A stretch of 8,280 bases of DNA. It comes from a virus. Lineage: Duplodnaviria > Heunggongvirae > Uroviricota > Caudoviricetes. The DNA lies in the IMG/VR virus record IMGVR_UViG_2690316227_000016. One strand, given 5' to 3'. Position numbers and translations under genes: made by a program. The notes under the pieces were generated by a model. It searched no databases. It was not told the origin of the DNA and was given only the letters and a program-made list of their open reading frames with translations. Below, piece after piece: positions 1 to 3,299 of this stretch (positions within the stretch are counted from its first letter, which is position 1; each line of letters opens with the position of its first letter).

Positions 1-1242
1 ATGGCGAGAAAAACACACCCATTAACCACAGTGCAGATCAAAGCAGCCAGACCAGCGCAAAAGGAGTACACCCTGCAGGACGGCGGAGGGCTTTTTCTCC
101 TGGTCAAACCGTCTGGATCAAAACTCTGGAGATTTTCCTACTACCGACCATCGGACAAAAAAAGAATATTGCTGAGTTTTGGATCGCTTGAAGATGTTTC
201 CCTGGCTGATGCCAGAAAACGCCGTAGCGAGTACAGGACGTTAATCAGTGCCGGAACTGACCCGCAGGACCACGAGAGGCAAAAAAGAGAGACAGAGGCC
301 CGAAGACAAGGGAACACGTTCGAAAATGTGGCGGCGGCATGGTACCAGGTGAAAATCAGCCAGAATCTGGCCCCCAACACGATTAAAGACATCTGGCGTT
401 CGCTGGATAAATATGTATTCCCGTTCATCGGCAACACGCCAATAGATACCCTCACCGCCCGAAGGTTCGTTGAAGTGCTTACCCCCATCAAGGAGCGCGG
501 CAACCTGGAAACACTCAAGCGGGTTTTACAGCGCGTTAATGAGGTAATGGATTACGCCGCCAACAGTGGGCTGATTGATGCCAATCCGGCTATGAATGTG
601 CGTAAGGCGTTTCCCTCACCTGTAAAAAAACATATGCCAACAATCCGCCCCGAACAGCTGCCGGAGCTTATGCAGGCTTTATCAGTATCGGCAACAGAAC
701 GGCAGACCAGATTACTGATTGAATGGCAGTTACTGACCGTAACCCGTCCCGCCGAAGCGTCATCAACGCGGTGGGATGAAATCAACCTGGACGCGAAGCA
801 ATGGACGATACCTGCCGGACGCATGAAGATGCGCAGGGATCACGTTATCCCGCTTTCCGGTCAGGCTATGGCGGTGCTGGAGGCCATGAAACCAATCAGC
901 CACCACCGCAATTACGTTTTCCCAAGTCTGAAAGACCCACAGCAGCCGATGAACAGCCAGACAGCTAACGCAGCATTGCGGCGTATGGGATTCGCTGGCG
1001 TGCTGGTGTCTCATGGATTACGCGCCATATTCAGCACAGCAGCGAACGAGGAAGGATTCGAGCCGGACGTAATAGAGGCGGCACTTGCCCACGTCGACAC
1101 CAACGAAGTTAGACGGGCATACAACCGGAGCAACTACATAGAAAAACGCATCGTGCTGATGCGCTGGTGGGGCGAATTTGTCGAGGCTGCGGCGACGGGC
1201 GTAACCCTCGCCAGTGGTAAAAGGGGTATCCGAGCCGTGTAG
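1..1242 (+). CDS. int: Tyrosine recombinase / integrase, P4-family (prophage CP4-57-like)
   Basis: 413-aa ORF filling the frame. C-terminal catalytic-type motifs are visible: TRPAEA (Arg), HGLRAIF (His-x-x-Arg), LAHV (second His), RRAYNRSNY (Tyr region). The N-terminal part resembles the arm-binding domain of P4-like integrases. Family assignment is from motif recollection, not a search. Confidence 0.9.
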   Translation: MARKTHPLTTVQIKAARPAQKEYTLQDGGGLFLLVKPSGSKLWRFSYYRPSDKKRILLSFGSLEDVSLADARKRRSEYRTLISAGTDPQDHERQKRETEARRQGNTFENVAAAWYQVKISQNLAPNTIKDIWRSLDKYVFPFIGNTPIDTLTARRFVEVLTPIKERGNLETLKRVLQRVNEVMDYAANSGLIDANPAMNVRKAFPSPVKKHMPTIRPEQLPELMQALSVSATERQTRLLIEWQLLTVTRPAEASSTRWDEINLDAKQWTIPAGRMKMRRDHVIPLSGQAMAVLEAMKPISHHRNYVFPSLKDPQQPMNSQTANAALRRMGFAGVLVSHGLRAIFSTAANEEGFEPDVIEAALAHVDTNEVRRAYNRSNYIEKRIVLMRWWGEFVEAAATGVTLASGKRGIRAV

Positions 1243-1319: not shown

Positions 1320-1571
1320 GTGAAACATGAAACCGTTAAGATGCAAAAAAATATCAGATGCAATTGCGACGGGCTGCAACTGGCCCTGATGGTTCAGCAT
1401 GAATTTTGGTCAACCTACGATCCGGAGGACAGGACGACGGCCCCATCAAAAAAACAGGTAGTAGATTTTCTGGTATCCCGTGGCGCTTCCAGAAATCTGG
1501 CGGTAAGTATTGATAAGGTCGTACGTCCGGCATCTATGAAGATCGGAGGCAGGCCCAAAAAATGGCGGTAA
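1320..1571 (+). CDS. Hypothetical small protein (83 codons from GTG 1320; first in-frame ATG at 1341)
   Basis: ORF bracketed by the TATAAT at 1290-1295 and a strong intrinsic terminator at 1583-1605. Basic C-terminus (GGRPKKWR). No family recognised and the Shine-Dalgarno is weak, so it could instead be a non-coding transcript. Confidence 0.3.
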   Translation: MKHETVKMQKNIRCNCDGLQLALMVQHEFWSTYDPEDRTTAPSKKQVVDFLVSRGASRNLAVSIDKVVRPASMKIGGRPKKWR

Positions 1572-1582
1572 CAATCCTGGAA

Positions 1583-1605
1583 GCGGCAGAAATGCCGCTT
1601 TTTTT
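1583..1605 (+). terminator. Rho-independent terminator
   Basis: GCGGC-agaaat-GCCGC hairpin (1583-1598) followed by T7 (1599-1605). Confidence 0.65.
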
Positions 1606-1632: not shown

Positions 1633-1722
1633 AAAAACGGTGTATACCGTTTAAAAACGGTGGGAACTGTTTTTACCCATATCCGATGATTTACCGTATT
1701 TGTCACCGGAATACACCGGATT
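1633..1722 (+). promoter_or_regulatory. Operator-like repeat cluster upstream of alpA
   Basis: Direct repeat AAAAACGGTG at 1633-1642 and 1653-1662 (20-bp phasing). Perfect inverted repeat ACGGT-gtat-ACCGT at 1637-1650. Direct repeat CACCGGA at 1704-1710 and 1714-1720 (10-bp phasing). Confidence 0.35.
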
Positions 1723-1738
1723 CACAAGGTAAATCACG

Positions 1739-1945
1739 ATGGAAGCAATCAGAAAAATTATCTTTCGCCAGGAAGTAAAAAAAATTATCCACATCAAGGC
1801 AGACAGCACGCTGCAAAGCATGATCAACGCCGGAGAATTTCCGCAGGGTTTTCGCGTTGGTTTACGCCGTCGCGGATGGTATGAGGATGATGTGTTGGCC
1901 TGGCAGAAAGAACGCGAACAGGAAGCACGCGGAACGGCTGCTTAA
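1739..1945 (+). CDS. alpA: AlpA-family phage transcriptional regulator (small HTH/MerR-like)
   Basis: 68-aa protein with the characteristic AlpA-family C-terminal region (EFPQGFRVGLRRRGWYEDDVLAWQKERE). Position immediately after int is typical for P4-like elements and PICIs. Confidence 0.8.
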   Translation: MEAIRKIIFRQEVKKIIHIKADSTLQSMINAGEFPQGFRVGLRRRGWYEDDVLAWQKEREQEARGTAA

Positions 1946-2516: not shown

Positions 2517-2561
2517 GTGGTCACCTATTGAATTAGCCTTTCCATTGTTAGGTGGTCACCT
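2517..2561. promoter_or_regulatory. Divergent control region with two GTGGTCACCT direct repeats (2517-2526, 2552-2561) and a TTGACA hexamer (2510-2515)
   Basis: Exact 10-mer repeated 35 bp apart. Each contains the odd-centred palindrome GGTCACC. The repeats lie between the divergently oriented Arc-like gene and the Icd-like genes. A matching -10 was not found. Confidence 0.4.
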
Positions 2562-2588
2562 TAACACAAGAGCACTTAAAAAAGCAAA

Positions 2589-2619
2589 GCCCCGCAAGTG
2601 TCATTACCACTCGCAGGGC
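2589..2619 (+). promoter_or_regulatory. Leader stem-loop upstream of the first Icd-like gene
   Basis: GCCCCGCAAGTG (2589-2600) and CACTCGCAGGGC (2608-2619) pair at 10 of 12 positions around a 7-nt loop. No T-run follows, so it is not a terminator. Confidence 0.3.
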
Positions 2620-2650
2620 TTCTAACCAACAACGTAAACTAGGAGCCGTT

Positions 2651-2848
2651 ATGGTTGCCGTAAATCATATACCACACCTTGTACACACACAAACGGCCTT
2701 TGTGTGGCGTTTTCTGGCCCTGAGTGCCGGAGAATCTCAAATCATCCACGTAACCGCCTGGACGGAACGCGAAGCGCGTAGCCGTTGCCCGTCCGGTTGT
2801 GTTGCTGTATTCGCCGCCCGTATTCGTCAGGGGTCACATCATGCGTAA
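2651..2848 (+). CDS. Icd-like small protein, copy 1 (host cell division inhibitor Icd-like family, tentative)
   Basis: 65 aa with an AGGAG 6 nt upstream of ATG 2651. Shares the motifs FVWRF...T...TEREAR...FxARIRQG with the ORF at 3135. The family name is from recollection of P4-like prophage annotations, not a search. Confidence 0.5.
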   Translation: MVAVNHIPHLVHTQTAFVWRFLALSAGESQIIHVTAWTEREARSRCPSGCVAVFAARIRQGSHHA

Positions 2849-2868
2849 AAACCGCTTGCAAAAAATTA

Positions 2869-3105
2869 TAACGGGGCTGTATGCTTCCCCCGTCGCCCAC
2901 ATGGCGACCGGGTTTAGCAGCCTGAATACTGTAGCGGACAGCCGCTTATATTCCGATATGCGGTTTTTTTGTGTCCGTAAGCCTACCCATACCCGCATTA
3001 TGGCGGGGCGTAACGGGGGAGCCTTTGCGCTCGCTGGTTCCTACAGTGCCAGTCTGCTAACCCTGTTACGTCTCGCCACCCCGTTTAGCAGCGTAGTAGC
3101 GAGAC
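2869..3105 (+). repeat. Duplicated non-coding module between the Icd-like genes
   Basis: TAACGGGG at 2869-2876 and 3011-3018. GTTTAGCAGC at 2912-2921 and 3083-3092, followed by GTAGCGGACAG and GTAGCGAGAC respectively. A near-complementary CTGCTAA-CCC element sits at 3054-3063. Small hairpins at 2871-2893, 2892-2908 and 2992-3007. Confidence 0.4.
2934..2970 (+). terminator. Intrinsic terminator-like hairpin plus T7
   Basis: GCGG-aca-GCCGC (2934-2945) and a CCGC...GCGG stem (2942-2963) followed by T7 (2964-2970). It lies inside the apparent N-terminal extension of ORF 2799..3299, which argues that the extension is non-coding. Confidence 0.5.
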
Positions 3106-3134
3106 TCCTTAAAATTACTGTAGGAGCCTTTCAC

Positions 3135-3299
3135 ATGGCTGTATCCGCACGCCCTTACTTTGTCTGGCGCTTTATGCAGTGCCACCACAGCTGCATTGAT
3201 GTATTCACCGTTACCGCTGCCACTGAGCGCGAAGCACGCGCCCAGCTGCCGCACGCACATCTGATTTTTGTCGCCCGTATTCGTCAGGGGGTTTTGTGA
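3135..3299 (+). CDS. Icd-like small protein, copy 2 (paralog of 2651..2848)
   Basis: 54 aa. The TAGGAGCC ribosome-binding context 8 nt upstream of ATG 3135 mirrors that of copy 1. Conserved motifs YFVWRF, TEREARAQLP, FVARIRQG. Its TGA stop overlaps the next start (TGATG at 3297-3301). Confidence 0.5.
   Translation: MAVSARPYFVWRFMQCHHSCIDVFTVTAATEREARAQLPHAHLIFVARIRQGVL

Follow-up and report, generated by a model that had tools for sequence, protein, structure and literature searches.

The DNA analysed here (the window, 8,280 nucleotides of the Caudoviricetes record IMGVR_UViG_2690316227_000016) starts at the ATG of a P4-type integrase gene and is, judged by its sequence, a phage-inducible chromosomal island (PICI) of the type of EcCICFT073, in which the parts for immunity and integration are P4-like. 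Its features follow in the order int, orfX, a terminator, 136 bp of non-coding DNA, an alpA-like gene, a probable bidirectional terminator and two convergent small genes. The non-coding interval in front of alpA is the subject of this report. Positions 1633-1722, together with their flanks (1603-1738), may form a composite control region of alpA with two predicted protein-binding modules, a reading on which our opinion is evenly balanced, and one RNA element would probably add to the two modules. The features placed in the interval, and the gene directly downstream of it, are as follows.

1633..1652, no strand assigned: Module A unit 1 (O1), palindrome AAAAACGGT-gtat-ACCGTTT, with arms at 1635-1641 and 1646-1652.
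1653..1674, no strand assigned: Module A unit 2 (O2), imperfect palindrome AAAAACGGT-ggga-ACTGTTTTT, with arms at 1653-1661 and 1666-1674.
1687..1695, plus strand: 5' arm TGATTTACC of an inverted repeat, a candidate arm of a stem in the mRNA leader.
1690..1701, plus strand: Module B site 1 (H5), TTTACCGTATTT, core TACCG, 12 bp upstream of the first CACCGGA; identical in 8 of 8 islands ascertained by BLAST.
1704..1713, plus strand: Module B site 2 (R1), CACCGGAATA; 9 of 10 positions invariant.
1714..1722, plus strand: Module B site 3 (R2), CACCGGATT, which is CGCCGGATT in diverged islands; 6 of 9 positions invariant, CCGGA always kept.
1728..1736, plus strand: 3' arm GGTAAATCA of the inverted repeat; it overlaps the Shine-Dalgarno sequence AAGG/GAGG (1726-1729), three bases before the ATG.
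1739..1945, plus strand: alpA-like gene for a 68-aa helix-turn-helix (HTH) protein of the Vis/AlpA family, a putative recombination directionality factor (RDF) and regulator.

Arrangement and conservation of the alpA control region

A preliminary description of this DNA had named a pair of AAAAACGGTG words, an inverted repeat ACGGT-gtat-ACCGT and a pair of CACCGGA words. All of them were found, by inspection of the sequence and with a repeat finder, in the places given for them: AAAAACGGTG at 1633-1642 and 1653-1662 (20 bp from start to start), the inverted repeat at 1637-1650, and CACCGGA at 1704-1710 and 1714-1720, 10 bp apart. The inverted repeat extends to perfect 7-nt arms, AAACGGT at 1635-1641 and ACCGTTT at 1646-1652. 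The description had missed the O2 palindrome, the four alternating half-sites, a third phased site, TACCGTATTT, which begins at 1692, and a 9-nt perfect inverted repeat (1687-1695/1728-1736) returned by the repeat finder, which brackets the CACCGGA pair and covers the Shine-Dalgarno sequence. Module A is built of two tandem 20-bp units with four alternating AAACrGT half-sites, the centres of which are 11, 9 and 11 bp apart. Tandem sites one DNA helical turn apart are also present upstream of alpA, and Module B would be a head-to-tail array of three such sites, each with the core YACCG followed by A/T.

Counted as words in the window alone, the repeats were unremarkable or at most modestly frequent. 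AAACGGT occurs four times against 1.45 expected (at least four in 12 of 200 shuffles) and CACCGGA four times against 0.91 expected (at least four in 1 of 200 shuffles), and A-tracts are common in intergenic DNA, which would suit chance low-complexity repeats or a recent functionless duplication. The arrangement of the words argues otherwise. In the 32.7-kb locus L001, which carries this island (window coordinates are converted to L001 by adding 14758), the pattern AAACRGT-N4-ACYGTTT has two matches against 0.01 expected, and CCGGA-N5-CCGGA has three against 0.08 expected, located only at attL and upstream of alpA. A matching array at the attachment (att) site and a sharp difference in conservation between arms and centres, across islands that are only ~78% identical, speak against chance as well; the comparative data already refute this explanation, and we regard its probability as negligible.

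Of 5,426 complete E. coli genomes, 374 contain the control region, with identity classes that range from 100% to ~78%, and pattern scans of IMG/VR gave ~53 further copies. Nissle 1917 and ATCC 25922 are among the strains that carry it, at 99.7% identity. Alignments were made of the 8 E. coli islands ascertained by BLAST (78-100% identical) and of 31 distinct sequences overall, and the repeats were kept in both sets, which bears out the pairs that had first been named. An invariant block comprises 1687-1701 and both CCGGA units; the palindrome centres (1643-1645 and 1663-1665), the spacer at 1675-1686 (12-15 bp after H4, the right arm of O2) and position 1702 vary freely. In O1, the right arm (H2, 1646-1652) is near-invariant and the left arm (H1) varies at 1639/1640. 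The best-conserved part of Module A is O2: among the 31 distinct sequences its left arm (H3, 1654-1661) varies at a single one of its 8 positions and its right arm (H4, 1666-1674), which lies outside every search pattern, at none of 9, with variation in the centre at 1662-1665. In Module B, the invariance of site 1 in the larger set is partly forced, as its motif served as the extraction anchor, and site 3 lies outside every search pattern. Insertions and deletions respect the units: the 20-bp unit O1 is exactly deleted in two IMG/VR contigs (L055 and one other), and a 10-bp gain has produced three CACCGGAATA units in strain 2018-166 and contig L057 (the gain alleles are given as L003 and L057).

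Conserved arms together with free centres are what a protein operator would show, and Module A therefore fits one. On these alignments the control region is two modules with a freely varying spacer between them, which does not agree with the single cooperative site on one face of the DNA that had been proposed. The motifs of the two modules differ (CACCG-T vs CACCG-G), and so does their geometry, with inverted pairs in Module A and direct repeats in Module B.

The leader of alpA also has the capacity to form a structure in RNA. Folding of 1680-1745 (66 nt) gave -20.1 kcal/mol (z = -2.94), and in an alignment of 18 sequences the outer stem, 1687-1695/1728-1736, was paired in 99.4% of the cells; at 1689/1734, nine of the 18 have U-A and eight have A-U. 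The CCGG of site 2 is able to pair with the CCGG of site 3, and an inner 4-bp stem was seen in the folds. This conserved stem may conceal the ribosome-binding site, and if the transcript starts upstream of 1687 it would hide the site in the alpA leader and so add translational damping. One could go further and take the repeats mainly as RNA structure, with the palindromes acting as hairpins or as an attenuator (the O2 hairpin followed by U5), with a fold of CCGG/CCGG and the outer stem that sequesters the Shine-Dalgarno sequence, and with no sequence-specific DNA binding. The energies of the short segment and of 1628-1745 as a whole (-38.7 kcal/mol, z = -3.81), the one compensatory pair in the outer stem and the T-run after O2 are consistent with this. 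The palindromes, however, do not vary like hairpins: the O1 pair 1639/1648 is lost, with no compensating change, in 11 of the 18 distinct sequences (O2 is invariant and thus uninformative), and in the diverged group the changes that O1 accepts would be wobble pairs on the minus strand only, and those of O2 on the plus strand only, so that no single transcript keeps both hairpins. CACCGGA also recurs at attL, where a leader RNA is not expected, and a purely RNA-level role of the repeats seems to us very unlikely.

The att arrays and the AlpA-like protein

The att site lies just beyond the window, upstream of position 1, and in L001 tRNA-Pro is 219 bp upstream. An attL array of three 10-bp-phased CACCGGA-type repeats, CACCGGATAT, CACCGGAAAG and CACCGGATAA, occupies L001 14548-14574, 8-34 bp past the end of tRNA-Pro, and further sites (CACCGAA, CACCGGA and AGCCGGA) follow at L001 14632-14668, ~100 bp in. 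Another repeat, AGTTATACG, stands on both arms of the island (L001 14675-14724 and 25682-25703). Just upstream of int it is present in two direct and two inverted copies, which overlap the int promoter region, and at the right end of the island in two direct copies, ~90 bp from a core-like remnant. All the AGTTATACG copies switch together to AGCTATACG in the diverged islands (L005-L008), and their layout matches the arm repeats annotated in the P4 record. Because they stand on both arms and change in concert, the AGTTATACG repeats are probably the arm-type sites of the integrase. Since AGTTATACG takes this role, the CACCGGA arrays, which in attL lie between the core and the Int arm-type sites, are left in the position of a directionality factor.

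It could be argued that the CACCGGA arrays are themselves the arm-type sites, and that the copy upstream of alpA lets Int regulate alpA. Int has an Arm-DNA-bind_3 domain, arm-type sites can be tandem direct repeats spaced ~10 bp apart, and the arrays lie inside the attL arm. It is AGTTATACG, however, that has the arm-type signature, being on both arms, at distances comparable with those in P4, and changing in a concerted manner between clades, whereas no CACCGGA array was found on the right arm. The phased TCCG sites of P4 are likewise distinct from its annotated arm repeats, and we consider the integrase a highly improbable binder of the CACCGGA arrays.

A small HTH gene of RDF-like character adjoins the promoter array. 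The AlpA-like protein that it encodes matched the PHROG 'excisionase and transcriptional regulator' (E 5.5e-7) and, at 17.6 bits, fell under the 21-bit cut-off of Pfam Phage_AlpA. In pairwise BLASTP comparisons it was 31% identical to P4 Vis (E 3e-8) and 28% identical to EcCICFT073 AlpA (E 2e-7). The closest fold to its model (predicted local distance difference test score, pLDDT, 66) was the AlpA-family GIsul2 excisionase 8c3t (template modelling, TM, 0.63/0.73, probability 0.93, with a non-significant E-value of 0.2); Pukovnik Xis and BldC came next, also with non-significant E-values. A protein-based locus search for AlpA relatives in species-representative genomes found none. One sequence, P0036 (90 aa, from an assembly labelled as nematode), is a chimera of the orfX N-terminus and the AlpA C-terminus, in which a deletion has removed the whole control region.

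Module B is predicted to be the array of this AlpA-like protein, an assignment towards which we incline, if with some reserve. The prediction is made because the same motif recurs in the same 10-bp phasing between the att core and the Int arm-type sites, because the attL array is placed where an excision directionality factor would act, and because the att arrays of P4 Vis, 186 Apl and P2 Cox each have a counterpart at the promoter of the factor itself. RDFs in general bind head-to-tail on one-turn direct repeats, at att sites and at promoters, with similar sequence and arrangement at both (PMC7498355). Binding of AlpA at Module B would lead to autoregulation and would couple the expression of alpA to excision. 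As to covariation of motif and RDF, between families EcCICFT073 has ACAAC arrays, and within the family of the window there is no informative covariation.

The first reading of the region, as a control region with AlpA among its possible binders, is thus kept in part. There is indeed a conserved cis-regulatory region, in a PICI-type island and immediately in front of a gene of the AlpA/Vis family, and with the same array at att AlpA is a well-founded candidate for the CACCGGA repeats. The alpA promoter in EcCICFT073 and EcCIMP1 is activated by AlpA and induced by the helper (PMC6092414, PMC11773190), and by analogy with these related islands the region may be the induction control point. [quoted passage not shown] The 136-bp control region resolves into two short conserved modules, one of which, Module B, can be assigned by comparison with its copy at att.

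The palindrome pair and a proposed helper input

When the island and its flanks were searched (L001, 32.7 kb, with up to 3 mismatches), no further copy of the Module A palindrome was found. In species-representative genomes the strict pattern had only two matches, both in metagenome-assembled genomes of Planctomycetes, which we took as chance, and Module A appears on these scans to be confined to E. coli islands.

We propose that Module A would be a separate operator, the input through which the helper phage turns alpA on. Helper induction of the alpA promoter of a related island persists in a delta-alpA mutant (PMC11773190), and Module A is suggested as the helper input because related alpA promoters respond without AlpA and because the 136 bp contain no other conserved element. 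An operator of this kind, for any helper-encoded binder, remains a tentative assignment, to which we give slightly less than an even chance. The inducer of PICI alpA was reported as unidentified (PMC6092414), and how the helper switches on alpA was stated to be open also for PICMIs (PMC10803314). No mapping of the cis-elements of any PICI alpA promoter was found in the literature searched. The protein that binds Module A would likely be a helper-encoded DNA-binding protein, possibly the Cox/Apl/Xis-type factor of the helper, comparable to P2 Cox at the P4 late-left promoter PLL.

Alternatively, the palindromes could be extra AlpA sites, which is conceivable and in our judgement rather doubtful. 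Similarly doubtful is the extension of this idea to one protein and one motif, where all seven sites upstream of alpA, that is the four palindrome arms (CACCGTTTTT, TACCGTTTAA, CACCGTTTTT, AACTGTTTTT) and the three direct sites, are bound by the AlpA-like winged-helix protein through a core YACYG and an A/T tract. Module A would then be the high-affinity activating part of a positive autoregulation, and the helper signal would act elsewhere or indirectly. A CACCG/TACCG core is indeed common to the palindrome arms, H5, R1, R2 and the attL sites, and Xis-type proteins read a core with an adjacent T-tract (the lambda sites X1 and X2 end in TGTTTT). In addition, the self-activation of AlpA reported in EcCICFT073 and EcCIMP1 (PMC6092414, PMC11773190) needs sites upstream of the promoter, and EcCICFT073 has an inverted pair, GTGTTTG-N8-CAAACAC, beside its direct GACACAA repeats, with ACAA as the common core. 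That inverted pair, however, is not kept in the O157 members of the EcCICFT073 family. Moreover, the base after CACCG divides the sites into two classes, being T in the palindrome arms and H5 but G in R1, R2 and the window-type CACCGG sites of attL; no palindrome-type site was found at either att arm; and inverted pairs are not the usual target of RDFs, which as a rule attach head-to-tail to direct repeats (PMC7498355).

Other candidates were considered and set aside. The Arc/HicB-like protein encoded at 2325-2516 on the minus strand, which had been named as a possible binder, is unlikely, as most islands with the repeats do not have it and its own promoter does not contain the motif. Only an AT-hook-like tail favoured the orfX product as the palindrome binder, and a fold search showed no recognisable DNA-binding fold; an 'AlpA family' label for orfX was discarded, since its sole match was P0036, the orfX/alpA deletion chimera. 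By eye, the half-sites have the wrong orientation for a likeness to the lambda CI/Cro operator (TATCACCG), and none of the consensus sites for Ogr/Delta (TGT-N12-ACA), LexA, CRP, FNR and IHF fits. Iterons of a replication origin would be in the wrong location here, and the motif is not repeated near the replication genes. The direct repeat AAAAACGGTGTAT in L081 was taken as chance, being an unrelated AT-rich element.

As for a factor of the helper, a possible source was seen in the int-proximal att arm of the P2-like phage Fels-2. Its sequence AAAAACAGTGTATTGCGTTTAAAAACAGCGGG is identical to Module A at 27 of 32 positions in a BLAST comparison, with an E-value of 3, which is not significant. 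The same segment has the 20-bp repeat structure of Module A, lies between the core and the arm-type sites and is common to ~20 Fels-2-like contigs; of 5426 E. coli genomes, 208 have a Fels-2-like int. The pR-pL regions of Fels-2-like phages contain phased AAAAC(A/G)-type repeats. In Fels-2 (L071 42-110, L073 1176-1291) and its E. coli relative L106, AAAAC(A/G)-type repeats were observed at two places, in the int-proximal att arm and in the cI-apl interval; probably they serve as Apl operators, and their sequence is unlike that of the TTGSCA-type sites given in the annotation of phage 186. The likeness over 32 nt hints at docking of a helper RDF, and a weaker hint comes from the EcCICFT073 block GTACTGTTTTTTTATAC, which resembles the lambda Xis site X2. 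Module A could accordingly be imagined as a docking array for the excision/directionality factor of the helper (Cox/Apl/Xis class), copied or converged from the helper att arm, which we think unlikely. If it were true, the commitment of the helper to excision would simultaneously turn on alpA of the satellite, the circuit from P2 Cox to P4 PLL would extend to PICI-type islands, and the class of the 'unknown inducer' of Gram-negative PICIs would be named.

Several points weigh against a composite region of the kind proposed. Module A was assigned to the helper by elimination, together with the non-significant likeness to the Fels-2 att arm (E = 3), and the two modules may not be independent, since the palindrome arms and Module B have the CACCG core in common. 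In the diverged islands the att-proximal repeats are ATCGGA/ATCGGT, and those upstream of alpA remain CACCGGA/CGCCGGA; the match between att and promoter is degenerate (~YCGGW), with no clean covariation of site and protein within the family. In the IMG/VR set, 1690-1711 and parts of 1635-1661 were bound to appear invariant, given the search patterns and the extraction anchor, although H4 and the second CACCGGA are conserved outside the search patterns and the BLAST-ascertained set gives the same footprint. CCGG is self-complementary, so the direct repeat doubles as an RNA stem, and the change at 1689/1734 is truly compensatory but probably a single event between two clades. Finally, a scan of the plus strand from the terminator to the ATG gave no convincing match to a sigma-70 promoter, and the sole sigma-70 match in the control region is on the minus strand and is not conserved. 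The lack of a good plus-strand match would fit an activator-dependent promoter.

As a helper input, the 42-bp palindrome pair remains as a specific bait, and the presence of this second, palindromic module makes the question of PICI induction directly testable. Natural test alleles are at hand in the one-unit deletion, the 10-bp unit gain and the compensatory stem variant.

The island and its relation to known systems

The features of the island on either side of the control region and its gene are listed below.

1..1242, plus strand: int, P4-type tyrosine integrase with an N-terminal arm-DNA-binding domain (Pfam Phage_integrase, Phage_int_M, Arm-DNA-bind_3).
1341..1571, plus strand: orfX, a small conserved gene with the C-terminal end GGRPKKWR, annotated as a coding sequence in all fetched E. 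coli loci.
1579..1602, plus strand: intrinsic terminator, a hairpin and T-run that closes the int-orfX transcript; in the terminator scan, a 10-pair stem with 5 G-C pairs.
2996..3083, plus strand: P4 CI/C4-type immunity RNA (Rfam RF01695; score 71.5 bits, gathering score 45, E 7.7e-13).

In E. coli genomes the island is located at tRNA-Pro, either in the yejM/yejO interval or beside eptB, and in L001 it measures ~11 kb, from tRNA-Pro to yejO. PICIs of the EcCICFT073 type are ~10-15 kb long and occupy a specific att site, and their layout is found here, with int and alpA reading in the same direction at the left end and, after them, a replication module and phage-derived packaging and capsid genes. 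The two convergent small genes after alpA are present in the version of the island in the window. After the CI/C4-type RNA come an icd-like gene, DUF4222, a RepA-type helicase, SSB, TerS and a capsid gene. From the match to the immunity RNA, the island seems to use RNA immunity of the P4-like type, and the long open reading frames listed at 2552-3299 are probably non-coding. Because the terminator at 1579-1602 ends the int-orfX transcript, alpA needs its own promoter downstream; diverged islands have a different hairpin and T-run at the equivalent position. A strong hairpin with A-run and T-run flanks was also noted at 1972-2004, in the interval from alpA to the convergent minus-strand genes; this hairpin probably terminates transcription in both directions, and alpA transcripts may end there unless read through.

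The gene orfX encodes 76 aa with a protein-like conservation pattern; it was present in every locus checked and is always co-inherited with int, the repeats and alpA, and a homologue search returned sequences from E. coli only. Its model has three helices (pLDDT 80) and gave no significant match in a fold search of the PDB. It may correspond to the gene overlapping or contiguous with int that is essential for excision in Vibrio PICMIs (PMC10803314). The left module of int, orfX, repeats and alpA is inherited as a block, and the downstream part is mosaic. Recombinant left modules were seen in L013, L014, L035 and L050, where the integrase is 96-99% identical to that of the window and orfX (73%) and AlpA (75%) are of the diverged type. 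The downstream replication and packaging modules are freely reshuffled, with helicase or primase and with or without TerS and capsid.

The island resembles P4 in its gene families (AlpA/Vis and Int/Int; the two integrases are 34% identical, E 7e-81 by BLASTP) and in having alpA, like vis (orf88), as the first gene of the operon, leftward in P4, ahead of the CI/C4-type RNA, so that the alpA promoter region occupies the place of PLL. In the stretch that separates the core from the Int arm repeats, P4 has three TCCG sites with 10-bp phasing, similar to the (T/C)CCG-type sites of the island, and the vis leader contains, on the reverse strand, CACCGGATAA, the same sequence as in the island attL array. 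Vis binds PLL and attP, and P2 Cox activates PLL. A second P4 array, distinct from the TCCG sites, consists of three 10-bp-phased TTAAAG-type repeats upstream of vis, which we take to be the boxes through which P2 Cox acts on PLL. The upstream module of the island is a palindrome pair, whereas that of P4 is three direct cox boxes; the island has PICI-type packaging genes (TerS and an HK97-type capsid) and not sid/psu/delta, and, when read by eye, its sequence has no Ogr/Delta-type TGT-N12-ACA site.

One-turn direct repeats in similar arrays at att and promoter are also found with 186 Apl and P2 Cox. These arrays have 5-7 sites and that of the island three, and the proteins belong to another HTH family without sequence similarity to the island protein. 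Moreover, 186 Apl represses, whereas PICI AlpA is reported as an activator. In ICEMlSym R7A the rdfS promoter has an inverted repeat that serves FseA, an activator distinct from the RDF, while the RDF itself binds this promoter as well as attP (PMC11963761); this element and its host are unrelated to those studied here, and its activator is encoded by the element and does not come from a helper. An analogy with the AlpA antiterminator of P. aeruginosa and its AlpA-binding element (ABE) was rejected. That AlpA is a different protein with eight helices and residues beyond position 140 (PMC9371919), of a type loaded onto RNA polymerase at an element located between -35 and -10. Since it is larger and Q-like, and the island protein has 68 aa and a modelled excisionase-like fold, the shared name is no evidence of kinship.

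EcCICFT073, which was located in CFT073, and EcCIMP1 share with the island int, alpA, the convergent small genes, the icd-like gene, DUF4222, a replication gene, SSB, PerC and capsid. In EcCICFT073, seven matches to ACAA-N6-ACAA-N6-ACAA were counted over 28.5 kb, against 0 in 200 shuffles, and members of that family retain the array. The matches are restricted to the two att arms and the interval between int and alpA, which is the same design as in the island with a different motif, ACAAC and not CACCGGA. EcCICFT073 further differs in carrying other int and alpA alleles and in being without orfX and without the AAACGGT palindrome pair. Right after its int there are six 10-bp-phased ACAAC repeats (L065 17186-17245), and the phased motif is seen also on the two att arms, at 15842-15872 and 27061-27090; GGTGTAGTTAAT, in two copies on both arms, looks like Int arm sites. 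Lambda is a known helper of EcCICFT073, and a conserved block of this family, GTACTGTTTTTTTATACAC (L065 17286-17306), bears a weak likeness to H4 of the window, ACTGTTTTT, as well as to the lambda Xis site X2, GTCTGTTTTTTATGC (L107 97-111). Taken by its predicted arrays, the alpA control region is best filed with the 'att plus own-promoter' architecture of the Vis/Apl/Cox type.

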